Source: a virus (taxonomy: Duplodnaviria > Heunggongvirae > Uroviricota > Caudoviricetes). Taken from it: a DNA stretch of 18,073 bases. Below the pieces are notes generated by a model that saw only the letters and a list, made by a program, of their open reading frames with translations, did no database searches and was not told the origin of the DNA. This document shows positions 1-17,375 of this stretch, one piece after another (within the stretch, counting starts at the first letter, position 1; each line of letters opens with the position of its first letter). The position numbers were made by a program, and so were the translations under genes. The stretch is from the IMG/VR virus record IMGVR_UViG_2526164650_000010; one strand, 5' to 3'.

Positions 1-436
1 ATGAAGCGTGAAGAAATCGCTGATCTGATGGCGTTTGTCGTCGTTGCAGAGGAGCGTAGCTTCACTCGCGCAGCAGCCCGCCTGAGCATGGTGCAGTCAG
101 CTTTAAGCCAGATAGTGCGCCGTATAGAAGAACGATTGGGATTGCGGCTTCTGACGCGAACCACGCGCAGCGTTGTACCCACTGAAGCGGGCGAGCATCT
201 TTTGTCTGTTCTTGGCCCTATATTGCATGACATAGATTCTGCCCTGACATCCCTGAGCGATCTGCAGAACCGCCCATCCGGGACAATACGTATTACTACT
301 GTAGAACATGCAGCAAAAACGATATTGTTACCAGCCATGCGCACATTCCTGAAATCGCATCCTGAAATTGATATTCAGCTTACCATTGATTATGGTTTGA
401 CCGATGTCGTTTCTGAACGTTTTGATGCAGGCGTCC
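1..436 (+). pseudogene. LysR-family transcriptional regulator, N-terminal (HTH plus start of effector domain) fragment, truncated by IS600
   Basis: Translation begins with a LysR-type HTH (FTRAAARLSMVQSALSQIVRRIEERLG...); the reading frame runs into the IS600 terminal repeat at 437, so the 160-aa ORF 1..483 is a gene-IS fusion, not an intact protein. Confidence 0.8.
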
Positions 437-1698: not shown

Positions 1699-1737
1699 CT
1701 TATTCTAAGCAACCGGGTAGCATCATACGGGGCAATT

Positions 1738-2150
1738 ATGGCCGCATTACCATACATGCAACTGTACATAGCTGATTACCTGGCTGACACCATGCATTTG
1801 TCAGCAGAGGAGCACGGCGCGTATTTGTTGCTGATGTTCAATTACTGGCAAACAGGAAAGCCAATACCCAAAAACAGGTTGGCAAAAATTGCCCGTCTGA
1901 CTAACGAGCGATGGGTTGATGTTGAACCATCCTTGCGGGAGTTTTTTTGTGATAACGGCGACGAATGGATGCATCTTCGGATTGAGGAAGATCTGGCATC
2001 TGTCAGAGAAAAATTAACCAAAAAATCAGCCGCAGGAAAAGCATCTGTTCAGGCCAGAAGAAGCAGAAAGGAAGCAGATGTTCAAACAAAACAAGAGAGA
2101 AATTTAACAGGTGTTCAAACAGATGTTGGAGTGGTGTTCGAACATGATGC
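1738..2150 (+). pseudogene. Phage replication protein (YdaU-like), 5' portion, interrupted by IS2
   Basis: ORF starting MAALPYMQLYIADYLADTMHLSAEEHGAYLLL...; the frame continues into IS2 at 2151 (track ORF 1738..2328 is a gene-IS fusion) and resumes in frame at 3487. Confidence 0.6.
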
Positions 2151-2161
2151 TGGATTTGCCC

Positions 2162-3067
2162 TTATATTTCCAGACATCTGTTATCACTTAACCCATTACA
2201 AGCCCGCTGCCGCAGATATTCCCGTGGCGAGCGATAACCCAGCGCACTATGCGGATGCCATTCGTTATAATGCTCGAACGCCTCTGCAAGGTTCTTTGCT
2301 GCCGTTAACCCGTCTGGTTTGGGCATGATACTGATGTAGTCACGCTTTATCGTTTTCACGAAGCTCTCTGCTATTCCGTTACTCTCCGGACTCCGCACCG
2401 CCGTGTTCTTCGGTTCAAGTCCCAACATCCGGGCGAACTGGCGTGTTTCATTAGCCCGGTAGCATGAACCATTATCCGTCAGCCACTCCACTGGAGACGA
2501 CGGAAGATCGTTGCCGAAGCGGCGTTCCACCGCTCCCAGCATGACGTCCTGTACTGTTTCACTGTTGAAGCCGCCGGTAGTCCCCGCCCAGTGCAGTGCC
2601 TCACGATCACAGCAGTCCAGCGCGAACGTGACACGCAGTCTCTCTCCGTTATCACAGCAGAACTCGAACCCGTCAGAGCACCATCGCTGATTGCTTTCTT
2701 TCACGGCCACTCTGCCTGTATGTGCCCGTTTCGATGGCGGTACAGCAGGTTTTCGCTCAAGCAACAGCGCATTCTGGCGCATGAGCCGGTAAACACGTTT
2801 GGCATTGATCGCAGGCATACCATCAAGTTCTGCCTGTCTGCGAAGCAGCGCCCATACCCGACGATAACCATACGTGGGCAGCTCTCCGATAACATGGTGT
2901 ATACGGAGAAGCACATCCGTATCATCAGTGTGACGACTGCGGCGGCCATCCATCCAGTCATCGGTTCGTCTGAGAATGACGTGCAACTGCGCACGCGACA
3001 CCCGGAGACAACGGCTGACTAAGCTTACTCCCCATCCCCGGGCAATAAGGGCGCGTGCGCTATCCAC
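2162..3067 (-). CDS. insD: IS2 transposase OrfB (InsD), 301 aa
   Basis: 301-aa ORF with DDE-type integrase core; overlaps upstream orfA as in IS3-family -1 frameshift arrangement. Confidence 0.9.
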
Positions 3068-3387
3068 TTTTTTGCCCGTCCATATTCAACGGCTTCTTTG
3101 AGGAGTTCATTTTCCATCGTTTTCTTGCCGAGCAGGCGCTGGAGTTCTTTAATCTGCTTCATGGCGGCAGCAAGTTCAGAGGCAGGAACAACCTGTTCTC
3201 CGGCGGCCACAGCAGTAAGACTTCCTTCCTGGTATTGCTTACGCCAGAGAAATAACTGGCTGGCTGCTACACCATGTTGCCGGGCAACGAGGGAGACCGT
3301 CATCCCCGGTTCAAAGCTCTGCTGAACAATTGCGATCTTTTCCTGTGTGGTACGCCGTCTGCGTTTCTCCGGCCCTAAGACATCAAT
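3025..3387 (-). CDS. insC: IS2 OrfA (InsC) HTH protein, about 121 aa
   Basis: Translation ...[43 protein letters not shown]...; the codon at the expected initiator position reads ATT here, and the open frame extends upstream to a GTG at 3435. Confidence 0.75.
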
Positions 3388-3486
3388 AATCTGTTCTCCA
3401 ATGACAAGTCTAAAAACTGGTATTAAGACTATCACTTAAATAAGTGATACTGGTTGTCTGGAGATTCAGGGGGCCAGTCTAGATGC

Positions 3487-4222
3487 CAACACAAAGGCAA
3501 CTAATAAAGATACAGATAAAGATCTAAAAACAGATCTAACCCATCCCAAACCCTTCCCTTCCGGAAGGGAGTTTCGGGATTTTGTGGCTGGAGTGCTTGA
3601 GGGGAGATTATCTGGCGGTACTGCAGCGGAATTTTGTAATTCTGCGGTGGTTGCGTTGCAGGCTGCTGGCCTGGATGTCTGTCGTGAGTATCCGGTGCCA
3701 GAGCGTGGTGACGGTTGCGGAGGGCGGATTGATATCGTCGTGACTGACAGGAACGGTGTCCGGTGTGGGATCGAGCTTGACCGAAATTCTCCGCGACAGA
3801 AATCACTGCTCAAAATCGGTGCTGTTGAAACCGGGATATGTGTCTTGCGGCGCAGTGATATCGCAAGGCACACCGAGCAGGGAATTCTGGTTATCGGTGG
3901 GGCTGTTCGCCAGAAAAAATTTGACCCGTTGTCAGTTGATCTGCCCGACTGGTTGTCAGAAACACTCTGGCATGAGTGGGTCCAGTTCAGGCAGGCATTG
4001 CGAAAACCGATTCGAACGGAGCTGGGCGCTAACGGGGCGATACGGGAACTGGAAAAATTCCGTCAGCAGGGTTTTACACCTGAGCAGGTGATTCGACACA
4101 GCATCGCCAATGAATACCAGGGTCTGTTCGCGCCGAAAGGTGTTCGGCCTGAGACGTTGCTCCGACAGGTTAACACCGTCTCGTTGCCGGACAGTGCGAT
4201 CCCGCCAGGCTTCAGGGGGTAA
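3487..4222 (+). pseudogene. Phage replication protein (YdaU-like), 3' portion
   Basis: Open in the same frame as 1738..2150 once IS2 and one TSD copy are removed (no stop between 3488 and 4222); joined length about 383 aa. Confidence 0.6.
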
Positions 4223-4228
4223 CAGACC

Positions 4229-4975
4229 ATGAAAAATATTGCGACAGGAGGCGTTCTGGAGCGTATCCGCAGACTGACCCCACCACATGTAACCGCCCCA
4301 TTCAGAACGGTTGCGGAGTGGCGCGAGTGGCAACTTGCTGAAGGCCAGAAACGTTGCGAGGAGATCAACCGCCTGAATCGTCAGTTGCGGGTGGAAAAAA
4401 TCCTGAACCGCTCCGGCATCCAGCCGTTGCACCGGAAGTGTTCGCTTGCGAATTACCGGGCGCAGAACGACGGTCAGCGACATGCACTGAGTCAGGCGAA
4501 ATCCATAGCTGACGAACTGATGACAGGCTGTACGAATTTTGTGTTCAGCGGTAAGCCCGGCACCGGAAAAAATCATCTTGCAGCCGCGATTGGCAACCGG
4601 CTGATGGCGAAGGGGCGTAGCGTGATTATCGTCACCGTGTCCGATGTCATGAGCGTGTTGCATGAGAGCTACGACAACGGCAAATCCGGTGAAAAATTTT
4701 TACAGGAGCTTTGTGGTGTTGACCTGCTGGTCCTGGATGAAATTGGCATGCAGCGGGATACGAAAAACGAGCAGGTGGTACTGAACCAGATTGTTGATCG
4801 CCGGACGGCATCGTTACGCGGTGTGGGGATGCTGACAAATATTAACCATGCAGCGATGAATACACTTCTCGGCGAGCGGGTGATGGATCGCATGGTCATG
4901 AACGGCGGGCGCTGGGTGAATTTTAACTGGGAGAGCTGGCGTCCGAATGTTAGCCATTCGAGGGTTGTTAAGTAG
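4229..4975 (+). CDS. DnaC-like replicative helicase loader (AAA+ ATPase, YdaV-like)
   Basis: 248 aa; Walker A GKPGTGKNHLAAAIG and Walker B LLVLDEIG motifs; RBS upstream; sits directly after the YdaU-like gene as in lambdoid O/P-type modules. Confidence 0.8.
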   Translation: MKNIATGGVLERIRRLTPPHVTAPFRTVAEWREWQLAEGQKRCEEINRLNRQLRVEKILNRSGIQPLHRKCSLANYRAQNDGQRHALSQAKSIADELMTGCTNFVFSGKPGTGKNHLAAAIGNRLMAKGRSVIIVTVSDVMSVLHESYDNGKSGEKFLQELCGVDLLVLDEIGMQRDTKNEQVVLNQIVDRRTASLRGVGMLTNINHAAMNTLLGERVMDRMVMNGGRWVNFNWESWRPNVSHSRVVK

Positions 4976-4989
4976 TTTCAGGAGGATTT

Positions 4990-5412
4990 ATGGCGAAACC
5001 TTTTACTCCCGAACAGCGGGAAGAACTGAAGACGCGAATTGTGGAACTCGTGCATCAGGACGGTCGGGTCACGATTCGGCAGTTGTCCGATGAAACAGGT
5101 ATCAGTCGTGCGTCTGTCGGTCGCTTATGCATAGAACTGGTCGCAAGTGGTGATGTATATAATTCTGGCTACGGCTTATTCCCGTCTGAACAGGCTCGCA
5201 AGGACTGGCAAAGCGCCCGCAAAAAACTCTCGAGAGTAAAGGTGAGGAAACCGGTTGTTGTTGATCCGGACCTTATCTGGTCATTACCTGACGGAGAAAT
5301 ACGCCGCTACGACAGGCGCCTGAATATAATCTGTCGCGAGTGCCGGAAGAGCGAAGCTATGCAGCGTGTACTGGCTTTCTATCAGGGTAATTTTCAGGAG
5401 GCGATACTGTGA
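4990..5412 (+). CDS. Hypothetical phage protein (YdaW-like)
   Basis: 140-aa ORF with strong AGGAGG RBS 8 nt upstream of ATG; syntenic with the replication module. Confidence 0.5.
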   Translation: MAKPFTPEQREELKTRIVELVHQDGRVTIRQLSDETGISRASVGRLCIELVASGDVYNSGYGLFPSEQARKDWQSARKKLSRVKVRKPVVVDPDLIWSLPDGEIRRYDRRLNIICRECRKSEAMQRVLAFYQGNFQEAIL

Positions 5413-5826
5413 ATGAAATTAGCTATCAGGCTTCAATTACCGCTGGCATTCGCATCAAAGGAGAGGAGCATGGAAATAAAACCAGAAGATGAGTTAAGCA
5501 ATATCGTTTTATTTCCGATAAAAGAGGATGACCCTCGTAATCAGGTTAATTTTCTTTATAAGCCATCGGAAAGACCATATTGCCATCACGCCTCTGTACG
5601 GGTTGACGAAAAAGAGCGTCAGGTCCGCTGTAAAATCTGCGGTGCGGTTGTGGAGCCGTTTGACTGGATGCTCTCTGTGGCAAAAAGAGAAACCAGACTG
5701 GCAGATGATGTAAGGCTATTGCGCCAGGAGGAACAGGAAAGGCGGAGAAATATAGAAAAGCTGATACAGATTGAGCGTAACGCGAAAGCGCGGATACGCA
5801 GGGCGACAAAATCCAGAACTGAATAA
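5413..5826 (+). CDS. Hypothetical protein with CxxH...CxxC zinc-ribbon-like motif and basic coiled-coil C-terminus
   Basis: ORF abuts previous stop; alternative start at 5470 (MEIKPEDE) has a better-spaced AGGAG RBS; cysteine/histidine pairs CHHAS...CKICG. Confidence 0.5.
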   Translation: MKLAIRLQLPLAFASKERSMEIKPEDELSNIVLFPIKEDDPRNQVNFLYKPSERPYCHHASVRVDEKERQVRCKICGAVVEPFDWMLSVAKRETRLADDVRLLRQEEQERRRNIEKLIQIERNAKARIRRATKSRTE

Positions 5827-5918
5827 TTAAATTTAGCACTGTTAAAAATTTAATCCTTAACCGGAGGGATTTCTGCACCCTCAAATCATCAGGAGACCGC
5901 CCGAAAGGGCGGTAATGA

Positions 5919-6137
5919 ATGGTTACATTATTTAGAAAAAAATATCCGCGAAAGAGTAGAACAACAGAATTCCTGTTTCTCATTCTGTTTATCGTGTTGA
6001 TGACACCGATATCCCCGCAAATTTTTGTCTGGATAATCGGAAAAATAATTGAGCCAGTTATTGAATTGTATAACGACGTGGTATGGGCGTCATTCAACAC
6101 ACTGCACAATAAAATTAATCCGTATAAGGAAAGCTGA
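5919..6137 (+). CDS. Possible small membrane protein (72 aa)
   Basis: Hydrophobic stretch FLFLILFIVLMTPISPQIFVWIIG; weak RBS; could be non-coding spacer. Confidence 0.2.
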   Translation: MVTLFRKKYPRKSRTTEFLFLILFIVLMTPISPQIFVWIIGKIIEPVIELYNDVVWASFNTLHNKINPYKES

Positions 6138-6138
6138 T

Positions 6139-6504
6139 ATGGCACTGACGAAAAAACAACGTGCAGAACTGCGCATGAAGTTCGGTGGTCGCTGCGCTTA
6201 TTGCGGCTGCGAACTTGGCGAAAAGTGGCATGCAGACCATGTAAAACCGGTCATTCGTTTTGATGGAAATATGCTTCACCAGGAACGTGACGATATATCC
6301 AACATGGTACCAGAATGCCACCCATGCAATCTGCACAAGCATTGCAGTAGCCTGGAAGATTATCGACGAATTATCAGTGATGGTCGTCGTGAATTCCTTG
6401 CGTCCGGGAAAGGCAAAGCGCTGGTTCGTATGGGATTGGTTGAAATGAAATCTGACCCGGTTGTGTTCTGGTTTGAAAAATATCAAGAAGGGGCTACGGC
6501 ATGA
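6139..6504 (+). CDS. HNH endonuclease family protein
   Basis: Start MALTKKQRAELR with AAGGAAA RBS; paired Cys motifs CAYCGC...HADH...CHPCN...H typical of HNH zinc-finger nucleases. The track ORF 6049..6504 is an N-terminally over-extended version. Confidence 0.7.
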   Translation: MALTKKQRAELRMKFGGRCAYCGCELGEKWHADHVKPVIRFDGNMLHQERDDISNMVPECHPCNLHKHCSSLEDYRRIISDGRREFLASGKGKALVRMGLVEMKSDPVVFWFEKYQEGATA

Positions 6505-7166
6505 CTACTATTACCAAAGAGCGACTGCAATGGCTGGCTAACATTTCTGGCCGCGATGATATTGACGATATAGACGGCGGTGAAATTCGTGAACTGGCGC
6601 TTATCGCTCTGGCATCACTGGAAGCAGAGCCTGTAGCGGAATGCATTGTTGAAGATGGGGGCATGTGTATTGATGGGTTCGGTGAGTATGTGGGTCACTC
6701 GCTGCCTGATGGAATGCATGAGCTTTATGCTGCCCCGCGAATGCGACAACCTGATGGATGGAAAGCCGTAGCTGTAGCGTGGAAGGTGACGTTTACTCAA
6801 GTTGACCAGGAATCTAATACGTTCACTGCTATATATTTTTACAAAGCGGAAGTTGAGCGTTGGGTACGACTGCATAAAGCATGTGATTTTCGGGCAGATA
6901 TAACACCGCTTTACGCAGCGCCGGCAGTGCCGGTTGCAGTAAACGACGACATGGCTTACGCATTCCATCACGCACTGTCAGATTCATCGCTTGGCTCTGA
7001 TGAAATCGAAGAAATTAAAACCGGTTTGCGTGCTGCCTTTGCCAACGTCACTATCCAACCAGAGCCGATAGTGCCGGATGAAATCGGGCCAAACGATAGT
7101 AATACGTTTGATTATGTTGATGGCTGGAACGCCTGCCGCGCTGCCATGCTTAAGGGAGATAAATAA
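6501..7166 (+). CDS. Hypothetical phage protein (221 aa)
   Basis: ORF overlapping the neighbouring stop/start codons (operon-like packing); acidic N-terminus; no motif I can assign. Confidence 0.55.
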   Translation: MTTITKERLQWLANISGRDDIDDIDGGEIRELALIALASLEAEPVAECIVEDGGMCIDGFGEYVGHSLPDGMHELYAAPRMRQPDGWKAVAVAWKVTFTQVDQESNTFTAIYFYKAEVERWVRLHKACDFRADITPLYAAPAVPVAVNDDMAYAFHHALSDSSLGSDEIEEIKTGLRAAFANVTIQPEPIVPDEIGPNDSNTFDYVDGWNACRAAMLKGDK

Positions 7167-7531
7167 TGATTAATCGAACCAAACTGGAGCACATTCTCGA
7201 ATATGCCAGGCAGCAGAAATGTATTGGGCAACTTTGTAAAATTCCACCAGGAGATATGGTTGAAATCGTGGAAATGGCCATGCGTAAGGCTGGCAACTCT
7301 CCGGTAACTCTGGCTGGCTGGATAAGCTGTAGTGATGCAGTTCCTGCTGAATATTGCGATGTGATTCTTCTCGATGATCTCGGGAATGTATTCCCCGGTT
7401 CCTGGGATAAGGTTTTTTGCCCCACTCGTGGCGGGAATAAGATGGCTTTTGTGGACAAAGACGGCGTTGAAGTAGAGAGCTCAACTCACTGGATGCCGCT
7501 ACCGGAACCACCGCAGGAGGTGAATCAATGA
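7166..7531 (+). CDS. Hypothetical phage protein, DUF551-like C-terminus (HWMPLPEPP)
   Basis: 121-aa ORF; the C-terminal W-x-PLP-x-PP motif is recalled from prophage DUF551 proteins; stop overlaps next start (ATGA). Confidence 0.55.
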   Translation: MINRTKLEHILEYARQQKCIGQLCKIPPGDMVEIVEMAMRKAGNSPVTLAGWISCSDAVPAEYCDVILLDDLGNVFPGSWDKVFCPTRGGNKMAFVDKDGVEVESSTHWMPLPEPPQEVNQ

Positions 7532-7611
7532 CCTGGCCTGAGGCATTCACCACGGTAGGAATTGCGATGGCGGTGGCGCTGGTGGTGTATTCGATTTGCC
7601 GTTGGGGTTAA
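7528..7611 (+). CDS. Small hydrophobic peptide (27 aa, single predicted TM helix)
   Basis: MTWPEAFTTVGIAMAVALVVYSICRWG; ATGA overlap with the upstream gene suggests translational coupling; immediately followed by a strong terminator. Confidence 0.4.
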   Translation: MTWPEAFTTVGIAMAVALVVYSICRWG

Positions 7612-7620
7612 CAAACAAAA

Positions 7621-7647
7621 ACCCCGGATTGATGGTCCGGGGTTTTT
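7621..7647. terminator. Rho-independent terminator (8-bp GC-rich stem plus T-run), probably bidirectional
   Basis: ACCCCGGA-ttgatgg-TCCGGGGT followed by TTTTT; A-run on the 5' side gives a U-run on the opposite strand. Confidence 0.7.
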
Positions 7648-7869
7648 GAAGGAAACAAAACAGAAACAGCAATTGCCGTTACCTGTTGTTACCATGGCAA
7701 GTAAACGTATCTCAGGCGAGCGCATTGCGCCGTTCTGACGCAGATAAATTAGCCTGGATAGAAGGTGCTGGCAATAAAAAATAGCGTTTTCTTATCGGTA
7801 TCGGTAAGATTGCTGCGGGTGCTTGAGGCTGTCTGCCTCGGGCATGCCACTGTAAGGCAGACAGAGAAA

Positions 7870-7940
7870 AGCCCCAGTTAACATTACGCGTCCTGCAAGA
7901 CGCTTAACATTAATCTGAGGCCCAATCTATGTCTCACAAA
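7870..7940 (-). ncRNA. Candidate Sok-like antisense RNA overlapping the mok start
   Basis: Minus-strand TTGCCT-17nt-TAACCT (7972..7944) would start transcription near 7937, antisense to the mok initiation region; a minus-strand hairpin GCGTC-ttgcag-GACGC lies downstream. Weak promoter match; hypothesis only. Confidence 0.2.
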
Positions 7941-8141
7941 TGTAGGTTAGCCTCTTACGTGCCGAAAGGCAAGGAGAAGCAGGCTATGAAGCAGCAAAAG
8001 GCGATGTTAATCGCCCTGATCGTCATCTGTTTAACCGTCATAGTGACGGCACTGGTAACGAGGAAAGACCTCTGCGAGGTACGAATCCGAACCGGCCAGA
8101 CGGAGGTCGCTGTCTTCACAGCTTACGAACCTGAGGAGTAA
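7929..8141 (+). CDS. mok-like reading frame (in-frame N-terminal extension of hok, 70 aa)
   Basis: ATG at 7929 opens a frame that contains the whole Hok peptide, as in chromosomal mok/hok loci. Confidence 0.45.
   Translation: MSHKCRLASYVPKGKEKQAMKQQKAMLIALIVICLTVIVTALVTRKDLCEVRIRTGQTEVAVFTAYEPEE
7986..8141 (+). CDS. hokD: Hok/Gef-family membrane toxin, HokD (RelF)-like, 51 aa
   Basis: MKQQKAMLIALIVICLTVIVTALVTRKDLCEVRIRTGQTEVAVFTAYEPEE: hydrophobic TM segment followed by the conserved TRKxLCE motif of Hok proteins. Confidence 0.85.
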   Translation: MKQQKAMLIALIVICLTVIVTALVTRKDLCEVRIRTGQTEVAVFTAYEPEE

Positions 8142-8210
8142 GAGACCAGGCGGGGGAGAAATCCCTCGCCACCTCTCATGTGTCAGGCATCCTCAACGCA
8201 CCCGCACTAA

Positions 8211-8231
8211 ACCCGCTTCGGCGGGTTTTTT
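8211..8231 (+). terminator. Rho-independent terminator downstream of hok
   Basis: ACCCGC-ttcg-GCGGGT hairpin followed by TTTTTT. Confidence 0.7.
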
Positions 8232-8376
8232 GTTGCGTGCTGAATACGCAGGGTGAAAAATAACCATATATTTGATTATATACACAACAAAAATAAAAGT
8301 CATTGTACTTGCACATTAAACAATCAAATATACGGCGTGAAATAAATATTTATCAGATTAATATTTTTGTCTCTAT

Positions 8377-8628
8377 GTGGATATAACCGTTTGTACTTAT
8401 AAACCTGGGGGCATCGTGGAAAAAATAAAGAAACTATTTAGTAGCAAATACGCAGTCATACGTCGTGATGACCTGTCAGTTATAGTCGAAATGGATTACT
8501 TCCCTGAAACCCCAAAATCAATAATGTATCGTAATGGTCGAAAGGCAATTTTTTTACCGATGAGGGTAAGTGACATTATGGGAAATGATAAACTGCTGGA
8601 TGAATTGCGAGTCAGAGCATCCTGTTAG
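8377..8628 (+). CDS. Small phage protein, Rem-like (83 aa)
   Basis: 83-aa ORF directly downstream of hok, as rem is in the K-12 Qin prophage (from memory); GTG start in this frame; its stop codon TAG lies inside the left IS1 target duplication. Confidence 0.55.
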   Translation: MDITVCTYKPGGIVEKIKKLFSSKYAVIRRDDLSVIVEMDYFPETPKSIMYRNGRKAIFLPMRVSDIMGNDKLLDELRVRASC

Positions 8629-8645
8629 TAGGTAATGACTCCAAC

Positions 8646-9136
8646 TTACTGATAGTGTTTTATGTTCAGATAATGCCCGATGACCTTGTCATGCAGCTCC
8701 ACCGATTTTGAGAACGACAGTGACTTCCGTCCCAGCCTTGCCAGATGTTGTCTCAGCTTCAGATTATGTCGCTCAATGCGCTGAGTGTAACGCTTGCTGA
8801 TAACGTGCAGCTTTCCCTTCAGGCGTGATTCATACAGCGGCCAGCCATCCGTCATCCATACCACGACCTCAAACTCAGAAGACGCTCCAGTGTGGCCAGA
8901 GTGCGTTCACCGAAGACGTGCGCCACAACCGTCCTCCGTATCCTGTCATACGCGTAAAACAGCCAGCGCTGACGTGATTTAGCACCGACGTAGCCCCAAT
9001 GTTCGTCCATTTCAGCGCAGACAATCACATCACTGCCCGGTTGTATGCGCGAGGTTACCGACTGCGGCCTGAGTTTTTTAAGTGACGTAAAACCGTGTTG
9101 AGGCCAACGCCCATAATGCGTGCACTGGCGCGACAT
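8646..9136 (-). pseudogene. insB: IS1 insB, frameshifted by 13-bp deletion
   Basis: InsB homology split into two overlapping ORFs (8852..9136 and 8646..8864); the break coincides with the 13-bp deletion near 8873/8874. Confidence 0.8.
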
Positions 9137-9330
9137 CCGACGCCATTCATGGCCATATCAATGATTTTCTGGTGCGTACCGGGCTGAGAGGCGGTGTAAG
9201 TGAACTGTAGTTGCCATGTTTTACGGCAATGAGAGCAGAGATAGCGCTGATGTCCGGCAGTGCTTTTGCCGTTACGCACCACGCCTTCAGTAGCGGAGCA
9301 GGAAGGACATCTGATGGAAATGGAAGCCAC
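9055..9330 (-). CDS. insA: IS1 InsA (91 aa)
   Basis: [42 protein letters not shown]... zinc-finger/HTH InsA. Confidence 0.9.
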
Positions 9331-9463
9331 GCAAGCACCTTAAAATCACCATCATACACTAAATCAGTAAGTTGGCAGCATTACCCTGTTAGTATTGGCA
9401 TTAATTCTGGTATACTACATAACGGGCTGAACACCCATTCTACTGCGCCAGCGGAGAACTACG

Positions 9464-10063
9464 ATGGCGCATATACAACTGGTCAAACAAACCTCTTCCG
9501 GATTACTTCTCCCGGCGACGCCGGAGAGTTGCGATTTTTTGCATCAAATCAAAATAGGTGAGTGGATACACGCAGACTTTAAGCGTGTGCGTAACTACGC
9601 ATTCCACAAGCGTTTTTTCAAACTCCTGCAACTGGGATTTGATTACTGGACTCCGGTCGGTGGGGCGATCACGCCTCGCGAACGAAAACTGGTATCAGGC
9701 TTCGTTGATTACCTGTGCGAATCAGTAGGTCGGGAACACACTCCAGCCCTGAGTGATGCCGCAGAGCAATACCTTAATACAGTTGCGACATGCAGAACCC
9801 GGGATACGGCATTGCTAAAGTCGTTTGACGCTTTCCGCGAGTGGGTAACCATTCAGGCCGGATTTTACACCGAGCATATTTATCCTGATGGTAGTCGTGG
9901 GCGCAGGGCAAAATCTATCGCATTTGCGAACATGGACGAAACCGAGTTTCAGCAGGTTTATAAATCTGTACTGAATGTGCTGTGGAACTGGATCCTGTTC
10001 CGTAAATTTTCCTCTCCGGAGGAAGTCGAAAATGTGGCCGCGCAGTTACTGGAGTTTGCGTAA
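9464..10063 (+). CDS. Phage nin-region protein of unknown function (199 aa)
   Basis: ORF with GGAGAA RBS; positioned between rem-like and YbcO-like genes as in Qin/DLP12-type prophages. Confidence 0.6.
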   Translation: MAHIQLVKQTSSGLLLPATPESCDFLHQIKIGEWIHADFKRVRNYAFHKRFFKLLQLGFDYWTPVGGAITPRERKLVSGFVDYLCESVGREHTPALSDAAEQYLNTVATCRTRDTALLKSFDAFREWVTIQAGFYTEHIYPDGSRGRRAKSIAFANMDETEFQQVYKSVLNVLWNWILFRKFSSPEEVENVAAQLLEFA

Positions 10064-10353
10064 TGGTGGATTTACGTAAAGCGGCGCGGGGGCAGATGTG
10101 CACCGTCAGAATTCCTGGCTACTGCAATCACAATCCCGAAACTTCTGTGCTGGCGCATTACAGGCTGGCGGGGACGTGCGGAACAGCGACAAAACCACAC
10201 GATATGCAGGCAGCGATTGCCTGTAGCTCATGCCACGATTTAATCGACGGGCGGGTAAAAACCAGCGATTACACCAAAGAAGAATTACGCCTGATGCATG
10301 CAGAAGGTGTTTTTCGCACACAAGAAATCTGGAGAAAGGAAGGTTATTTATGA
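10063..10353 (+). CDS. YbcO-like (DUF1364) Cys/His-rich putative nuclease
   Basis: 96 aa; MVDLRKAARGQMCTVRIPGYCNHNPETSVLAH...ACSSCHD resembles my recollection of DLP12 YbcO; ATGA overlap with upstream and downstream genes. Confidence 0.6.
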   Translation: MVDLRKAARGQMCTVRIPGYCNHNPETSVLAHYRLAGTCGTATKPHDMQAAIACSSCHDLIDGRVKTSDYTKEELRLMHAEGVFRTQEIWRKEGYL

Positions 10354-10904
10354 TTTACCCAACAAATACAGGCAAAAGCGGGGAACACCTTCGTCTCACC
10401 ACGCTGGAAAGTGTCTGGATTCAGGGAAAACTGCGCATGTGGGGGCGCTGGTCGTATATTGGCGGCGGTAAGACGGGAAATATGTTTAACCAGTTGCTGG
10501 CATCCAAAAAATTGACGAAAACAGCCGTCAATGAAGCCCTGCGCAGGATGAAAAAAGCGGGAATAGAGAAACCTGAGCTGGAAGCGTTTTTGCGAGAGAT
10601 GATCAATGGCAAGCAAAAGACCTGGCTGGCGCATTGTACTGATGCAGAGGCGTTATGTATTGATAGAGTCATAAGTGAGGTGCTGGCAGAGCATCCTGGA
10701 TTGATTAGTGTCCTCCGGCAACGGTATGAAGGGCGGGGGATGACTAAGCGTAAAATGGCTGAATTGCTGAATGACGCACACCCTGAGTGGTGTTTCCGGA
10801 CGTGCTGCAGTCGGGTAGATGTATGGCTAAATCTTGCTGAATATATGCTCTATCTACCGATGCGTGATGCATTCTCTTCCGGGGATCTAAAAACCGTTTG
10901 TTGA
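10350..10904 (+). CDS. Putative late antiterminator Q-like protein (185 aa)
   Basis: Assigned mainly by position: last gene before a promoter plus short-transcript terminator pair, downstream of the nin-like genes. Start taken at ATG 10350 (overlaps YbcO-like stop) rather than the upstream-extended ORF 10230. Confidence 0.45.
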   Translation: MIYPTNTGKSGEHLRLTTLESVWIQGKLRMWGRWSYIGGGKTGNMFNQLLASKKLTKTAVNEALRRMKKAGIEKPELEAFLREMINGKQKTWLAHCTDAEALCIDRVISEVLAEHPGLISVLRQRYEGRGMTKRKMAELLNDAHPEWCFRTCCSRVDVWLNLAEYMLYLPMRDAFSSGDLKTVC

Positions 10905-10930
10905 CTCAATCTGTTATCCGGGGCTATATT
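10901..10930 (+). promoter_or_regulatory. Sigma70 promoter, PR'-like late promoter candidate
   Basis: TTGACT (10901..10906) - 18 nt - TATATT (10925..10930), overlapping the stop codon of the Q-like gene. Confidence 0.4.
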
Positions 10931-10992
10931 CCTCACGCGCCAGCAAAATCTGGCGTCGGGATTGGCGTCCCGGATGTTTACGGAGCGATATG

Positions 10993-11013
10993 AGACGCGC
11001 CCGCGTCTTTTTT
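10993..11013 (+). terminator. Rho-independent terminator, tR'-like
   Basis: AGACGC-gccc-GCGTCT followed by a T-run, about 60-80 nt downstream of the candidate PR'. Confidence 0.6.
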
Positions 11014-11176
11014 CATATCGTTTGCACAGTCACATTCGCGATTTATGGCGGGCTGTGTGGGGGAGCCGAAAGGCTCGCCGGTTTCCGTACCCGGTTACGC
11101 CAACCCTGCACAGTTCGCCACCAGTTCGATTGGCGTCGTCGGTGGCGATAATTTCCAAATGTACGGAGTTATCGTT

Positions 11177-11227
11177 ATGACCACTCAAATCTCTGTTGAA
11201 ACTCTCTCCCCGATCACCCATAACCAG
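11177..11227 (+). pseudogene. Phage antirepressor-like gene, 5' 17 codons, interrupted by IS600
   Basis: ATG with GGAG RBS, MTTQISVETLSPITHNQ, then IS600 terminal repeat at 11228; frame resumes at 12495. Confidence 0.45.
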
Positions 11228-11291
11228 TGAGGTAGCCTGAGTTTAACGGACACTCCTTCCTGAAATAGAATGGCATCAGAAGGAGCTAATA

Positions 11292-11594
11292 ATGAGCAGA
11301 AAAACCCAACGTTACTCTAAAGAGTTCAAAGCCGAAGCTGTCAGAACGGTTCTTGAAAATCAACTTTCGATCAGTGAAGGCGCTTCCCGATTATCCCTTC
11401 CTGAAGGCACTTTAGGACAATGGGTTACCGCCGCCAGAAAAGGGCTCGGTACTCCTGGTTCCCGCACGGTGGCTGAACTGGAATCTGAAATTCTGCAACT
11501 GCGTAAGGCGTTAAATGAAGCTCGCCTTGAGCGAGATATATTAAAAAAAGCAACAGCGTATTTTGCACAGGAGTCGCTGAAAAATACGCGTTAA
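11292..11594 (+). CDS. IS600 OrfA (HTH protein, 100 aa)
   Basis: MSRKTQRYSKEFKAEAVRTVLENQLSISEGASRLSLPEGTLGQWV... with leucine-zipper-like C-terminus. Confidence 0.9.
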   Translation: MSRKTQRYSKEFKAEAVRTVLENQLSISEGASRLSLPEGTLGQWVTAARKGLGTPGSRTVAELESEILQLRKALNEARLERDILKKATAYFAQESLKNTR

Positions 11595-11629
11595 TCGAAC
11601 AATGGCGACAACAATTTCCCATTGAAGCG

Positions 11630-12448
11630 ATGTGTCAGGTATTTGGTGTATCCAGGAGCGGTTATTACAACTGGGTACAGCATGAACCCTCAGACAGAAA
11701 ACAAAGTGATGAGCGGCTAAAACTGGAGATTAAGGTGGCACATATCCGCACTCGCGAAACATATGGAACCCGGCGGCTCCAGACGGAGCTGGCAGAGAAT
11801 GGCATCATCGTTGGTCGTGACCGACTGGCACGTCTTCGTAAGGAGCTGAGGCTACGCTGTAAGCAGAAACGCAAGTTCAGAGCGACTACGAACCCGAACC
11901 ACAATCTGCCAGTTGCGCCAAATCTGCTGAACCAGACGTTCGCTCCTACAGCACCAAATCAGGTCTGGGTGGCGGACCTGACGTATGTTGCCACACAGGA
12001 GGGATGGTTGTACCTCGCTGGCATCAAAGATGTTTATACGTGTGAAATTGTCGGCTACGCCATGGGAGAGCGCATGACAAAAGAGCTGACAGGTAAAGCC
12101 CTGTTTATGGCGCTCAGGAGCCAGCGCCCACCTGCCGGGCTAATCCACCACTCTGATCGAGGTTCACAGTACTGCGCATACGATTACCGGGTCATACAGG
12201 AGCAGTCTGGTCTGAAAACATCAATGTCGCGTAAAGGTAACTGTTACGACAACGCTCCGATGGAAAGCTTCTGGGGAACGCTGAAAAATGAGAGCCTGAG
12301 CCACTATCGTTTTAATAACCGGGATGAAGCCATCTCAGTAATACGGGAATACATTGAGATTTTCTACAATCGTCAGCGTCGTCACTCTCGTCTGGGGAAT
12401 ATCTCCCCGGCAGCCTTCAGGGAAAAATATCATCAGATGGCTGCTTAA
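11630..12448 (+). CDS. IS600 OrfB (DDE transposase catalytic domain, 272 aa from ATG)
   Basis: The -1 frame relative to orfA is open from 11531; DDE-type motifs (WVADLTY..., HSDRGSQY..., NCYDNAPMESFWGTLK). Confidence 0.85.
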   Translation: MCQVFGVSRSGYYNWVQHEPSDRKQSDERLKLEIKVAHIRTRETYGTRRLQTELAENGIIVGRDRLARLRKELRLRCKQKRKFRATTNPNHNLPVAPNLLNQTFAPTAPNQVWVADLTYVATQEGWLYLAGIKDVYTCEIVGYAMGERMTKELTGKALFMALRSQRPPAGLIHHSDRGSQYCAYDYRVIQEQSGLKTSMSRKGNCYDNAPMESFWGTLKNESLSHYRFNNRDEAISVIREYIEIFYNRQRRHSRLGNISPAAFREKYHQMAA

Positions 12449-12494
12449 AAAAAGAACAAATGGTAGTGTCCGCTATTGCCAGTACACCTCACAG

Positions 12495-13001
12495 ATTCCT
12501 GTTATTACCACCGAACTTTTGGCGCAGCTTTACGGCACTGAGCCGGTGCGTATTCGCCAGAATCATCATGAGAACAAAGTACGCTTCGTTGAAGGGAAAC
12601 ACTTTTTCAAAGTTGTTGGTAATGACCTTAAAGAATTGCGGGTCGCTTTAAACTACTCACAAAATCCAGTTTCACCCAAAGCCCGCTCCCTCATCCTCTG
12701 GACAGAACGAGGCGCAGCACGCCACGGCAAAATGCTCGAAACCGATCAGGCGTGGGATGTGTTCGAAAAACTGGAAGACTGCTATTTCAGTCAAAGGGAT
12801 CCGTCAACGCCAGTTTCATGCCAGAAAAGTTACGACACGCGAGTTCTCTGTTATCAGAGAGGCGGTGTCACTGTTTCCACAATTCAGTTACGGGATGATG
12901 ATATTGTTATTTCCCTTGAGTCATGGCTGGAACTGGCGAGAGCCAATGGTTGGTTTGTTGTTCGCAGAGATAAACTGGTGGAAAGGTTGATGCAGCTTTA
13001 A
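12495..13001 (+). pseudogene. Phage antirepressor-like gene, 3' portion (169 codons)
   Basis: In frame with 11177..11227 after removing IS600 and one CAG copy; the track ORF 12354..13001 begins inside the IS. Confidence 0.5.
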
Positions 13002-13209: not shown

Positions 13210-13286
13210 GGCCCTTTAGCTCAGTTGGTCAGAGCGAGCGACTCATAATCGCCAGGTCGCTGGTTCAAGTCCAGCAAGGGCCACCA
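13210..13286 (+). tRNA. tRNA with CAU anticodon, most like tRNA-Ile2 (lysidine type); tRNA-Met not excluded
   Basis: Hand-folded cloverleaf: acceptor GGCCCTT/AAGGGCC, anticodon loop CTCATAA, T-arm GCTGG-TTCAAGT-CCAGC, 3' CCA encoded; the anticodon stem-loop and T-arm match my recollection of E. coli ileX. Confidence 0.75.
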
Positions 13287-13287
13287 A

Positions 13288-13364
13288 CCACCACTAGCTC
13301 ATCCGGATAGAGCATCAACCTTCTAAGTTGACGGTGCGAGGTTCGAGTCCTCGGTGGTGGGCCA
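13288..13364 (+). tRNA. tRNA-Arg (anticodon UCU)
   Basis: Acceptor CCACCAC/GTGGTGG (unusual 5' C), D-arm GCTC...GAGC, anticodon stem TCAAC/GTTGA with loop CTTCTAA, T-loop TTCGAGT, CCA encoded; 1-nt spacer from the previous tRNA. Confidence 0.75.
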
Positions 13365-13366
13365 GC

Positions 13367-13442
<76 letters not shown>

Positions 13443-13445
13443 TAT

Positions 13446-13520
<75 letters not shown>

Positions 13521-13634: not shown

Positions 13635-15239
13635 ATGATTCAGCTATCCAGTAGTCACAAACTTCCAGCAGTCTACTATCTCTACCAGCGTAACGGCGTC
13701 TACTACTTCCGTCTTAGGGTCAGACAATCAAACAATGATAGAATGACCTCAATATCATTACGGACCAAGGATAGACGCACCGCTATGGCTTACTCAAGGC
13801 ACATAAAGGCAGCACTCAAGGCAATACACGCAGACAGACCCAACGCTACCTATGAGGAAATGAGGGAACACCTTAAGGACATCGCTGAGTGTGAACTGTC
13901 TATGGGCCGTTCAGATCTCTTTGAGCCTGACATGAGGGATATCTACCGGGACCAATACGGAGAACTTGGTGAGAGCCTTACCGATGCTCTGGCTAGTGAG
14001 CCGCTAAGCATTGACCAGCATCGTTACATCAATGAGGCCCTGAAGGTGCTAAAAGCCTGTATGAGGCGTATCGAAGCGGGAGACAGTCAGCTTCTGATAG
14101 ATTACGTCGATCTTTTTAATGATATTGATAGGCAAGATAACCAAGCAGACTCTGTGTCCCTATCTGTTAATGCTCCAGAAGTAAAACCAGAAGTTACGCC
14201 TAGCATTACCATAGCGAGCCTCTTTGAGCAATACGAAGCGGAGAACTATCAGAACTGGAAGCCTGCAACCTTAAGGGAAAACAAGGCGTCACACGCTGCG
14301 TTAATCGAAATATTCGACCATCTGGGTCTCAATGCAGACGCTAACAGGGCTGACATGCTTAGGGTCCGTGATGTGCTCCAGCAGTTACCTAGGAACCGTA
14401 AGCAGCGCTTCAAGGATGTCCCACTTGCTGACCTGTTGAGCCGTGAAGATAAGACAGATTGTCTGGATGTCGTTACCATCAACAACAAGTATCTTATTAA
14501 GATGGCTGCTGTCTTTAGGTGGGCTGTGCGCAATGACTTGATTAAAAAGAACATGACTGAGGGTCTGGAGCTTAAAGTCCCTCAGCGTAAAGCCTCAGGG
14601 GCCCGTAACGCCTTCTCTACGGAGCAGGTGGGGCAACTACTGGTCGCAGCTAAGGCATACTCTCAGAAGACCTCTGGTAAGCCGTATCATTATTATGTTA
14701 CCGCCTTGGCTGCTATCACTGGGGCGAGACTCAATGAAATAGCCCAACTACAGGTCAAAGACGTCAGGACCACTGAGGCGGGAACCGTTTATATTCATAT
14801 CAATGAAGACGATAGTAGTCTACCCGGTAAGAGCATCAAGAACGCTCATAGTGACCGCTGTGTGCCTCTGGTCGATGGGGCCTATGGTTTTATATTGGCT
14901 GACTTTATGGCGCTTGTAGAGACCCGTAGAGGCGCTGACGGTGATGACGCTATGGTGTTCGATGGTCTGCGTCTCATGAAGAACGGTTACGGTGAGCAGG
15001 TGAGTAAATGGTTTAATCGGACGTTGTTGCCTAAAGTCCTCGTAGACCGTAGCGGCTTAGCGTTTCACTCGTTTAGACATACAGTTGCGGCCCAGTTAAA
15101 ACAACATGGGGTCGAGTTGGCGTATGCACAGGCGATCATGGGGCATAGTTCAGGGTCTATTACGTACGACCGTTATGCTAAAGAGGTCGAGGTTGATAGG
15201 CTGGTCAATGTGATGGCTGATGTTTATAAGGAGACCTAG
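13635..15239 (+). CDS. Tyrosine site-specific recombinase (phage-type integrase), 534 aa
   Basis: C-terminal catalytic signature: R (TGARLNEIAQL), H-x-x-R (HSFRHTVA), H and Y nucleophile (MGHSSGSITYDRYAK); N-terminal arm-type start (YQRNGVYYFRLRV); begins 114 bp after tRNA-Gly. Confidence 0.9.
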   Translation: MIQLSSSHKLPAVYYLYQRNGVYYFRLRVRQSNNDRMTSISLRTKDRRTAMAYSRHIKAALKAIHADRPNATYEEMREHLKDIAECELSMGRSDLFEPDMRDIYRDQYGELGESLTDALASEPLSIDQHRYINEALKVLKACMRRIEAGDSQLLIDYVDLFNDIDRQDNQADSVSLSVNAPEVKPEVTPSITIASLFEQYEAENYQNWKPATLRENKASHAALIEIFDHLGLNADANRADMLRVRDVLQQLPRNRKQRFKDVPLADLLSREDKTDCLDVVTINNKYLIKMAAVFRWAVRNDLIKKNMTEGLELKVPQRKASGARNAFSTEQVGQLLVAAKAYSQKTSGKPYHYYVTALAAITGARLNEIAQLQVKDVRTTEAGTVYIHINEDDSSLPGKSIKNAHSDRCVPLVDGAYGFILADFMALVETRRGADGDDAMVFDGLRLMKNGYGEQVSKWFNRTLLPKVLVDRSGLAFHSFRHTVAAQLKQHGVELAYAQAIMGHSSGSITYDRYAKEVEVDRLVNVMADVYKET

Positions 15240-15327
15240 AGGAGACCATAGTCTAGGATGACACTTACTACAGACCTGTGTGGTCATGTTTTTGACTCAT
15301 AGTTTTCTCTACTTGTCAAGGGATAAT

Positions 15328-15350
15328 TAATACGACTCACTATAGGGAGA
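15328..15350 (+). promoter_or_regulatory. Phage T7 RNA polymerase promoter, perfect 23/23 match to class III consensus
   Basis: TAATACGACTCACTATAGGGAGA; predicted +1 G at 15345. Confidence 0.75.
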
Positions 15351-15448
15351 AGGGACACAAAAAGTTTTCTCTTCTAGGATGACACTTACTACAGACCTGT
15401 GCGGTCATGTTTTTGACTCATAGTTTTCTCTGCTTGTCAAGGGGTAAT

Positions 15449-15471
15449 TAATGCGACTCACTATAGGGAGA
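15449..15471 (+). promoter_or_regulatory. Phage T7 RNA polymerase promoter, 22/23 match (A to G at -13)
   Basis: TAATGCGACTCACTATAGGGAGA; predicted +1 G at 15466. Confidence 0.65.
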
Positions 15472-15568
15472 AGGGACACAAAAAGTTTTCTCTTCTAGGA
15501 TGACACTTACTACAGACCTGTGTGGTCATGTTTTTGACTCATGGTTTTCTCTACTTGTCAAGGATAAT

Positions 15569-15591
15569 TAATACGACTCACTATAGGGAGA
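15569..15591 (+). promoter_or_regulatory. Phage T7 RNA polymerase promoter, perfect 23/23 match
   Basis: TAATACGACTCACTATAGGGAGA; predicted +1 G at 15586. Confidence 0.75.
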
Positions 15592-15780
15592 AGGGACACA
15601 AAAAGTTTTCTCTTCTAGGACAACTAACCGTAACTTATCGCATCCTTTCAGGGGCGGGATGACCAATTACAGACACCAAGCGTTCTACTTAAAGTGAATG
15701 CTTCCTGTGTGCTCTGGGTCAGTCGATAAGTGAATAGCAATAAGACACAATCATCTTAATTATGGTCTCTAGTCCCTACA

Positions 15781-15960
15781 GGGGCTTAACTTAAAGTTAA
15801 CTTAAAGACACAATTAAAGATTAACTTATAGTATTACTTAAAGTTAACTTAAAGACACAATTAGAGATTAACTTTAAGTATTAAATAAAAGATTTAATTA
15901 AAGACCAATTAAAGATTAACTCTAAGGGAATACCTTAAGGGGTGATGATATTTATAATAA
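15781..15960. repeat. AT-rich iteron region (ACTTAAAG / ATTAAAGA motifs; two about 42-bp direct repeats 47 bp apart plus a degenerate third)
   Basis: ACTTAAAGTTAACTTAAAGACACAATTA at 15789..15816 and again at 15836..15863; related ATTAAAGACCAATTAAAGATTAAC at 15891..15920; no ORF. Confidence 0.7.
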
Positions 15961-15996
15961 TCAATCACCAAACCTATAGGTCTTCTCTTGAAGTGG

Positions 15997-16837
<841 letters not shown>

Positions 16838-16892
16838 AGGATAATGCGCTCTGAGTTTCCCGATTATCGAGAACTGTTCAGGGAGTCTGACA

Positions 16893-17165
16893 TCAAGAGC
16901 GCGGTAGCCTTTTTAATATTTCATTCTCCATTTCAATGCGTTGTAGCTTTTTCCTGAGCTCACGGATTTCAATTTGTTCCGGGGTAATGGGGGAGGCTTT
17001 TGGTGTTTTGCCCTGACGCTCATCACGCAGTTGTTTGACCCATCTTGTCATTGTGGAAAGGCCAACATCCATAGCTTTGGCGGCATCTGCCACCGTGTAT
17101 TTCTGGTCAACAACCAGTTGAGCGGATTCGCGTTTAAACTCTGCGCTAAAATTTCTTTTTTTCAT
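16893..17165 (-). CDS. IS911 OrfA with altered C-terminus
   Basis: [46 protein letters not shown]...; the slippery run reads ATTAAAAAGG (five A before G), which is one A short of an A-AAA-AAG heptamer. Confidence 0.75.
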
Positions 17166-17237
17166 TGGAGCACCTGTGTTGTTCTGAGGTGAGCATATCA
17201 CCTCTGTTCAGGTGGCCAAATTCAGTGTGCCACTTCA

Positions 17238-17320
17238 CAGTTGAAATTGCTGAGCTGACAGGCAAGGAGCACCGAAATGTCCTTCGTGATATTCGTAAGA
17301 TGCTCGAAGAACTTAACGCG
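17238..17320 (+). pseudogene. Fragment of a phage Rha-family regulatory protein gene
   Basis: Translates VEIAELTGKEHRNVLRDIRKMLEELNA, the conserved N-terminal Rha motif; bounded by IS911 (17237) and IS1 (17321). Confidence 0.5.
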
Positions 17321-17375
17321 GGTAATGCTGCCAACTTACTGATTTAGTGTATGATGGTGATTTTAAGGTGCTTGC

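Follow-up and report, generated by a model that had tools for sequence, protein, structure and literature searches.

Analysis of an 18,073-nt stretch of viral DNA (Caudoviricetes, IMG/VR record IMGVR_UViG_2526164650_000010; hereafter the window) leads us to read its AT-rich, repeat-bearing segment at 15619-15988, with rather more belief than doubt, as the downstream half of a T7-type replication origin, carried by a small integrase-bearing island that sits in a tRNA-Gly gene and appears wired to T7-like phages. As for the island, its likeliest identity is a minimal satellite, or hitcher, of virulent T7-like phages.

A T7 promoter is a requirement of every T7 origin, with phi1.1A/B serving as the primary and phiOR and phi6.5 as secondary origins (PMC8373140), and three co-oriented promoters are found 30-270 bp 5′ of 15619. 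They reside in three 121-bp tandem units on the plus strand (15252-15614; 97% and 70% identity in register), each with one class-III-type T7 promoter directed rightward. The promoters at 15328-15350 and 15569-15591 are identical to TAATACGACTCACTATAGGGAGA at 23 of 23 positions, and the one at 15449-15471 agrees with the T7 consensus at 22 of 23. Promoter and initially transcribed sequence together are closest to T7 phiOR (34 nt, 94%). Relatives of the island hold one to three such copies, and the 23/23 consensus recurs in many independent copies of the island. Vector contamination was rejected as their source, the flanks being unlike cloning vectors and the locus being present on 91 E. coli chromosomes and on metagenome contigs. 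Sigma-70 promoters and intrinsic terminators showed no excess over shuffles in 15200-16000.

Downstream of the promoters, a leader free of repeats (15619-15778) gives way to a tract with 23.6% GC (15779-15935; the T7 tract has 26%). The iteron core at 15786-15935 (~24% GC), our proposed zone of DNA unwinding and initiation, is composed of ACTTAAAG, ATTAAAGA and TTAAAGAC units; the whole of 15619-15988 contains ACTTAAAG five times and ATTAAAGA three times. TTAAAG occurs eight times in these 370 bp, compared with 0.39 expected and a maximum of 3 in 1000 dinucleotide shuffles, and 8 of the 11 copies in the entire window fall here. Two copies of a 47-nt direct repeat, at 15789-15835 and 15836-15882, share 94% identity, and there are further degenerate ones. 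The repeat grammar is far above chance. An earlier note on this DNA, made from the sequence by itself, had described a unique leader of about 160 bp, an AT-rich region of reiterated motifs, two direct repeats of about 42 bp at 15789 and 15836 with a degenerate further copy, and a 10-mer common to the spacer of the T7 A1 promoter; all of these descriptions hold, the 10-mer being AACCTATAGG at 15971-15980, which recurs at T7 476-485.

The tract resembles the corresponding part of phage origins directly. A sensitive blastn search of 50,697 phage records, with 15619-15988 as query, yielded significant matches confined to T7-group phages, namely IME15, PZL-Ah1 and avDM11-UST (E=2e-4, 84.6% over 50 nt), Ebrios and KFSA9 (E=2e-3) and Tarrare (E=3e-2). 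In the three genomes inspected (IME15, Ebrios and Tarrare) the match falls between gene 1, encoding the RNA polymerase, and gene 1.1, directly 3′ of two tandem promoters, which is where the primary origin of T7, composed of phi1.1A/phi1.1B and the AT-rich tract, is situated. When aligned locally to T7, the segment reached z=8.2 at the primary origin, z=6.6 at the AT-rich tract that follows phiOL and z=4.6 in the phiOR region; the mononucleotide shuffles behind these scores are a forgiving control where DNA is repetitive. The densest 150-bp clusters of TTAAAG/TTTAAG/CTTAAG-type words in the T7 genome coincide with the primary origin (5921-6070, seven words) and phiOL (361-510, six words), and the window reaches 13 at 15791. 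A separate 46-nt match (87%) to window 15873-15916 was observed in unannotated DNA of four E. coli plasmids of 50-72 kb from pig faeces (CP057078.1 24212-24257, CP057297.1, CP057306.1 and CP057410.1).

The T7 gene 4 primase recognises GGGTC, TGGTC and GTGTC. On the minus strand, TTAAAGAC(A/C)C units of the segment contain putative primase sites by sequence match, with GTGTC ending at 15748, 15811 and 15858 and TGGTC at 15907, and two further pentamers lie at 15665 and 15676. The T7 primary origin has GGGTC on the same strand, within TTTAAGACCC (T7 5948-5952). Six minus-strand pentamers in 15619-15988 (0.56 expected) and 13 in 15240-15988 (1.7 expected) were reached by none of 500 shuffles, although tandem duplication inflates both counts. 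Primase sites like those of a T7-type origin are present at the level of sequence. Arrays of 12-13-bp tandem repeats were also seen flanking the promoters and origin module, consisting of GGCGATGACCATA (13 copies), TGTGGTCCTA (three copies) or CTATAGGTCTCT-type units (L001 17773-17935 and 17950-18010; L008 ~4080-4150); they vary between strains, and most units hold a TGGTC or GGGTC pentamer on either strand.

Three other explanations of the iterons were considered. Integrase arm sites are unlikely, as the tract lies ~2.3 kb from attL and at least 1.7 kb from attR. Binding sites of a cargo-encoded protein are unlikely as well, since the iterons are common to islands with differing first genes (KilA-N, Rha and a 163-aa type), and cargo proteins differ between iteron-sharing islands. 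An iteron-type plasmid origin would call for an adjacent Rep gene, but the islands contain none, nor any gene for a primase or helicase.

Between promoters and tract lies a conserved 112-nt leader (15626-15737, plus strand), predicted to form a long irregular hairpin with the outer stem ACTTATCG / CGATAAGT. Across 20 different leader sequences, taken from E. coli, Klebsiella, Rouxiella, Morganella and metagenomes, the outer stem undergoes a U-A to C-G switch that is compensatory and has G-U variants as well, and the inner hairpin contains two compensatory pairs; this covariation traces to few evolutionary events and its support is modest. From the window to the K. pneumoniae island, identity is 82% in the leader, 77% in the inverted repeat described below and 67% at third codon positions of the integrase gene, and the AT-rich tract retains its composition and motifs with little exact sequence. 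Phage records contained no match to the leader, plasmids gave nothing beyond the 46-nt AT-rich match above, and Rfam returned nothing but sub-threshold miRNA noise for leader and tract. The leader may represent a structured RNA that has not been described, or else a cruciform of the DNA.

The module is closed by an inverted repeat, GGTGAT-N17(AT-rich)-ATCACC (15941-15969). Most relatives conserve it, at a distance of +245 to +350 from the leader. It outdoes shuffled sequence in folding (z = -2.4) and resembles T7 39331-39356 (GGTGATTATATTGTATTAGTATCACC), 3′ of phiOR. A possible small open reading frame (ORF; MIFIIINHQTYRS..., MIFIIINHQ... / MISIIINHH...) starts at an ATG inside this repeat (window 15947-15988; L001 18546-18611; L055 and L059 at +248 and +267 from the leader). 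It is placed like gene 1.1 relative to a phage origin tract, and could be a leader peptide or mere coincidence.

The surroundings of the module are those of a mobile element. Positions 1-13000 of the window are lambdoid prophage genes, followed by a phage tRNA cluster (Met, Arg, Thr and Gly(UCC), by ARAGORN) that ends with tRNA-Gly(UCC) at 13446-13520 on the plus strand. The 3′ end of that gene (13498-13520, plus strand) constitutes the attL core, TTCGATTCCCGCTGCCCGCTCCA, a 23-bp sequence present at both ends of intact relatives. An island tyrosine integrase of 534 aa follows (13635-15239, plus strand; Pfam Phage_integrase 2.1e-17, PHROG 1 integrase 2e-44, with a Pfam DUF6538 match below that family's cut-off), and after it come the promoter array, 15619-15988, an insertion sequence (IS) of the IS3 family, a fragment of a Rha-type gene and IS1. 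In E. coli FDAARGOS_944 the same prophage has an unoccupied tRNA-Gly with the lysis genes directly after it, identifying the stretch from integrase to Rha as an insertion into the tRNA gene. Comparison of window 13210-13520 with L067 11955-12265 places the island in a prophage-borne tRNA-Gly and not in the chromosomal glyU, and the island could ride as a passenger of a temperate phage.

The window copy of the island is decayed, its cargo side having been lost to IS elements. The IS3-family element occupies 15989-17237 on the minus strand, as read from its IS911-type terminal repeats (TGAAGTGG...) and the minus-strand transposase ORFs, and replaces the downstream promoter, the element in the 5′ untranslated region (5′UTR) and the start of the first cargo gene, into which IS-free relatives run on. 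What remains of that gene is an 83-bp fragment of a Rha/Ant-type regulator (17239-17321, plus strand; VEIAELTGKEHRNVLRDIRKMLEELNA), matching the N-terminus of the Rha-type first cargo genes of relatives (Pfam Phage_pRha 1.6e-17) and cut again by IS1 from ~17322. The earlier note had regarded the region as truncated at 15989 by IS911; an IS with IS911-type ends is indeed there, and what it removed was confined to the cargo side, leaving the AT-rich module complete. Two IMG/VR contigs (L006 and L007) have the IS at the identical base in the opposite orientation, with the downstream 5′UTR kept in L006. The flanks of the IS in the window are without target duplication, which suggests an IS-mediated inversion or deletion.

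The segment and its upstream array (15240-15988) match 91 of 5426 complete E. coli genomes, in every case on the chromosome. In E. coli FT130, a 4.28-kb island is flanked on either side by one copy of the 23-bp 3′ end of the tRNA-Gly gene glyU. Its integrase gene and tandem short repeats are followed by two perfect T7 promoters, which stand ahead of the leader and then the AT-rich iterons; next is the inverted repeat GGTGAT-N17-ATCACC, and after it come a degenerate T7-like promoter, the conserved 5′UTR, a KilA-N gene and a gene for a small membrane protein. Other E. coli islands at the glyU site differ in cargo, and some have a DUF4145 gene after the integrase gene. An integrase scan with one genome per species found 20 loci (65-87% amino-acid identity) beside tRNA-Gly in Enterobacterales, among them Klebsiella, Pectobacterium, Citrobacter, Proteus, Morganella, Serratia, Kluyvera and Buttiauxella. 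A metagenome scan with a leader 20-mer added ~25 further true loci; 9 of its 34 matches were unrelated sequences and were set aside. In the six metagenome contigs L033, L036, L038, L045, L052 and L060 the 20-mer TTTCAGGGGCGGGATGGCCA stands in otherwise unrelated, mutually conserved sequence and was treated as a chance match to a single unrelated family.

Most of the ~35 leader-bearing loci with enough flanking sequence share one layout: attL, integrase, promoters (-80 to -320), 112-nt leader, AT-rich tract, inverted repeat, promoter(s), cargo and attR. Complete islands measure 4.2-6.6 kb and are bounded by the 23-bp tRNA-Gly core; borders of this kind, together with a prophage tRNA-Gly that is occupied in the window and known in its empty form, are what a phage satellite with multiple integration sites presents. 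The AT-rich tract stands at an equal relative position in nearly all leader-bearing relatives with enough downstream sequence (GC 0.16-0.27, one to 10 TTAAAG), and is absent in L018 and L032. In many islands a DUF4145 gene (PHROG 1305, 'DNA binding protein') abuts or overlaps the end of the integrase gene, 5′ of the promoters (L010 3260-3901; L011 7745-8377; L012 7735-8394). It is absent from the window's subtype, and its product is a candidate excision or regulatory factor.

Most relatives from the integrase scan have T7-supergroup promoters 3′ of the integrase gene, with differing specificity regions. The K. pneumoniae island combines K11-type AATTAGGGCACACTATAGGGAG with a perfect T7 promoter, the Proteus and Kluyvera islands have AATTAACCCACACTATAGGGAG, and Citrobacter and some E. 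coli islands have CTTAACTATCACTATAGGGAG. Klebsiella island promoters match 347 Klebsiella phage records, and the E. coli E2865-type promoter matches K1F-like phages at 4-6 sites per genome. Promoter specificity fits the phages of the host, with the T7 type in E. coli, the K11 type plus T7 in K. pneumoniae and the K1F type elsewhere. Different specificities also stand side by side in single islands (K11-type, perfect T7 and AATTAGGTAGCACTATAGGGAG; L011 8386-8502 and 8942-8964; L013 8263-8840). The arrays suggest a multi-phage response range. Further promoters lie 3′ of the AT-rich module in relatives, at +302 to +391 in Klebsiella-type islands and in degenerate form in E. coli FT130, so the origin-like module is separable from cargo expression.

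The first cargo gene always encodes KilA-N, Rha/Ant or a related small DNA-binding protein. Klebsiella-type islands further encode a protein of 76 aa, a DUF6971 protein whose long tail is a charged coiled coil, and a 375-aa protein (P0001; L013 ~10200-11840, with the DUF6971 gene just upstream). Sequence searches of Pfam, PHROGs, NCBIfam and PDB returned nothing for the 375-aa protein, and a fold search indicates with moderate confidence an HK97-fold protein of capsid or encapsulin type. Homologues of the 375-aa protein were seen in Pectobacterium, Serratia, Yersinia and Lonsdalea. The DUF6971 coiled-coil protein looks like a scaffold. Directly 5′ of the first cargo gene, a ~100-nt hairpin element (GTCATTCTGTYTGCRTCCTG...CAGGRTGC) is found in all subfamilies, including those without leader and AT-rich module (L001 18870-18985; L011 9360-9477; L012 9190-9303; also L019, L020, L023, L025, L026 and L030). 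Its role may be that of a processing site of RNase III type or of an element controlling translation.

We propose the following course of events as the most likely mechanism. The RNA polymerase made early by an infecting T7-group phage would fire the promoters at 15328-15591, and transcription would pass through the structured leader and on into the iteron tract of 24% GC. In this easily melted tract the phage DNA polymerase would take the transcript as primer, as it does at the primary origin of T7, with the TTAAAGAC(A/C)C units supplying gene 4 primase sites in support of the opposite strand, and the helper replisome would thereby amplify the island. The separate downstream promoters would express the cargo, i.e. 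the KilA-N/Rha-type regulator and, in Klebsiella-type islands, the scaffold-like and HK97-fold capsid-like proteins. All genes being co-oriented, read-through after circularisation would reach the integrase gene. What the sequences demonstrate is the anatomy of the island with its borders, the likeness to phage origins, a conserved architecture and host-fitting promoter types. We infer replication initiation, excision and any transfer or packaging, and induction by a helper phage is suggested by phage-polymerase promoter types that fit the phages of the host. A T7 origin drives plasmid replication with T7 RNA polymerase alone (PMC8373140), and a 5-6 kb satellite of a virulent phage is packaged as head-sized concatemers (PMC10803314), making the amplification and packaging steps plausible. 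In its wider context the segment agrees with a mobile element dependent on a helper: the integrase island is bounded by att sites, the promoters fit the phages of the host, and relatives have a gene of capsid fold.

Several points weigh against an origin, besides the inflation of the primase counts mentioned above. The similarity to phage origins is short (~50 nt) and falls in low-complexity DNA. The tract starts ~190 bp after the last promoter, behind a leader, whereas in T7 it follows directly. Its sequence is weakly conserved between subfamilies, and the constraint on it may be weak or one of composition only. Subfamilies with K1F-type or other promoters, including those of Pectobacterium and Proteus, have no leader or AT-rich module and keep the 5′UTR hairpin and cargo. 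As for satellite functions, E. coli-type islands and the window have no capsid gene, the capsid-fold model of the 375-aa protein has a predicted local distance difference test (pLDDT) score of 61, which is moderate confidence, and no T7 packaging signal was found. No attP junction (CGATAC-TTCGATTCCCTTCGCCCGCTCCA-TGACC) and no circular or concatemeric form was found among ~25 metagenome contigs, three IMG/VR contigs and an IMG/VR pattern scan, a weak negative as these data are mostly cellular assemblies. The strongest objection combines the missing functional or excised-form evidence with the absence of the module from some subfamilies.

Among the alternatives, the one that survives best, though we think it unlikely, is a defence cassette triggered by the phage polymerase. 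Its T7 promoters would serve solely for expression of the cargo (KilA-N or Rha regulator, small membrane protein and capsid-like decoy) when a T7-like phage makes its RNA polymerase, and 15619-15988 would act as an extended 5′ leader or a regulatory RNA, the AT-rich part being without function at the DNA level. Such a cassette would account for downstream genes that are all co-oriented with the promoters, for the RNA-type covariation of the leader with its G-U pairs, for the conserved hairpin right before the first cargo gene, for cargo as variable as that of defence hotspots, and for the persistence of promoters and cargo in subfamilies without the AT-rich module. The strongest point against it is that the cargo has its own promoters 3′ of the module, so that the upstream array and AT-rich tract are dispensable for expression. 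It also leaves the phage-origin match and the strand-biased primase sites unexplained, and PADLOC gave no significant match by which any cargo protein could be assigned to a defence system. A defence cassette would in any case be compatible with replication.

We give distinctly less credence to a decoy origin or promoter sink, which would titrate T7 RNA polymerase and the replisome, or start futile replication of host DNA, without aiding transfer of the island. Up to three tandem consensus class-III promoters joined to an origin-like tract, an island held at one chromosomal site in 91 genomes and the failure to find a packaging signal would all suit a decoy. One to three promoters, however, are a weak sink beside the 17 of a replicating phage genome. 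A mobile element that profits from being amplified is indicated by the integrase, by att ends that are conserved, by the several contexts of integration and by the capsid-fold gene in relatives.

It is slightly less probable still that the array mimics a genome end, imitating the CCTAAAG-type arrays at T7 terminal repeats in the service of concatemer processing and encapsidation. T7 TAAAGA clusters do mark arrays near both genome ends (281-430 and 39631 onward), relative L017 carries CCTAAAGACC units, phiOR is the closest counterpart of the promoter, the array is followed by an inverted repeat like the one 3′ of phiOR, and weaker blastn matches (E=0.4) were obtained a short way in from the left or right genome end of Kvp1, 2050H2 and vB8388. 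The significant matches, in contrast, are to the internal origin and not to ends. Neither 15619-15988 nor the full non-coding region of an intact island had a blastn match to a phage terminal repeat or concatemer junction. The window has no CCTAAAG heptamer, with the related units TTAAAG and TAAAGA present in 15619-15988, and no ATCTGTT pause signal lies 3′ of the promoters, the sole ATCTGTT of the islands being inside the integrase gene, upstream of them. Where the earlier note had proposed a T7-type origin or genome-end module serving a helper phage, alignment thus bears out the origin at the level of sequence, with matches to T7-group primary origins beyond the promoter 23-mers (E=2e-4, z=8.2) and primase pentamers, and the genome-end and packaging part finds no support.

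Lastly, an inert fossil, left by an integrated T7-like temperate phage or by recombination with one, might be imagined from the decaying window copy with its two IS elements and lost cargo and from the existence of integrase-bearing T7-like phages such as LUZ100, but it is very improbable given the 23/23 promoters in many independent copies, a module order kept across genera despite 67% integrase third-codon-position identity, and precise att borders around no more than 3-6 genes, among which no structural or replication gene of T7 occurs.

If the segment is a natural T7-origin element, a minimal element would sense and exploit a virulent phage without any sensor protein. T7 is the best understood virulent phage, and the minimal requirements of satellite replication would be directly testable with T7 genetics and public strains (NCTC10973 and NCTC9967). 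The islands would also constitute a natural catalogue of promoter specificities of single-subunit phage RNA polymerases and a read-out of predation by T7-like phages on Enterobacterales. In phage therapy with T7-like phages, such as Klebsiella Przondovirus and K1F-type coliphages, they could be mobilised by, or interfere with, the therapeutic phage. A full-text literature search found no satellite of T7-like phages and no chromosomal island with T7-type promoters; most subscription journals lay outside that search, and an earlier description is possible. What appears new is a satellite or hitcher of phages whose origin is of the helper's type and whose wiring runs through the helper's polymerase. 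More tentatively, and with doubt somewhat outweighing belief, we propose that these islands are the first satellites of virulent T7-like (Autographiviridae) phages, which would sense the helper solely through RNA polymerase promoter arrays that set the helper range, use a pirated origin with the helper replisome and, in some lineages, possess small HK97-fold shells of their own, all within 4-6.6 kb.

Among known systems, the capsid-forming phage-inducible chromosomal islands (PICIs) and the Staphylococcus aureus pathogenicity islands (SaPIs) that redirect capsid size, for instance through Ccm (SaPIbov5), are 10-15 kb long, compared with 6.4 kb for the island. Of the capsid-forming PICI gene set (capsid, portal, protease, adaptor and small terminase), the Klebsiella-type islands have at most the HK97-fold and DUF6971 proteins, and portal, protease, small terminase and head-tail adaptor genes are absent; the window's subtype lacks a capsid gene altogether. 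Closer in kind are the PICMIs of Vibrionaceae (phage-inducible chromosomal minimalist islands; PMC10803314), which are likewise very small integrase islands with few genes and apparent dependence on virulent phages, and the E. coli-type island resembles them in having no capsid-remodelling genes. Concatemer packaging of PICMI offers a precedent for a 4-kb element filling a 40-kb head. Unlike PICMI, the island lies in tRNA-Gly and not beside fis, has no AlpA or primase core genes, and seems to have its activation hard-wired through helper RNA polymerase promoters and its origin copied from the helper. Excision, replication and transfer have been demonstrated for PICMI, whereas the island is known here from its sequence.

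The nearest parallel is the set of T7 primary and secondary origins (phi1.1A/phi1.1B, phiOL and phiOR), where, as in the island, tandem promoters fire into a tract of ~24-26% GC made of TTAAG/TTAAAG-type units and a TTAAGAC-type unit carries, on the same strand, a pentamer for the gene 4 primase; the tracts of IME15, Ebrios and Tarrare share direct sequence similarity with that of the island. The island module differs in being chromosomal and part of an integrase island, in the 112-nt leader (~190 bp in all) that separates promoters from tract, and in a tract that is about twice as long and internally duplicated. Engineered T7 transducing plasmids were reportedly described by Chung and Hinkle in 1990, and the laboratory plasmids that were packaged are said to have also borne a T7 concatemer junction, unlike the island. 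Like those engineered T7-origin and transducing plasmids, the island would place a T7 promoter-type origin on non-phage DNA, an arrangement that in the plasmids makes replication dependent on the phage or on T7 polymerase, and it is their apparent natural counterpart.

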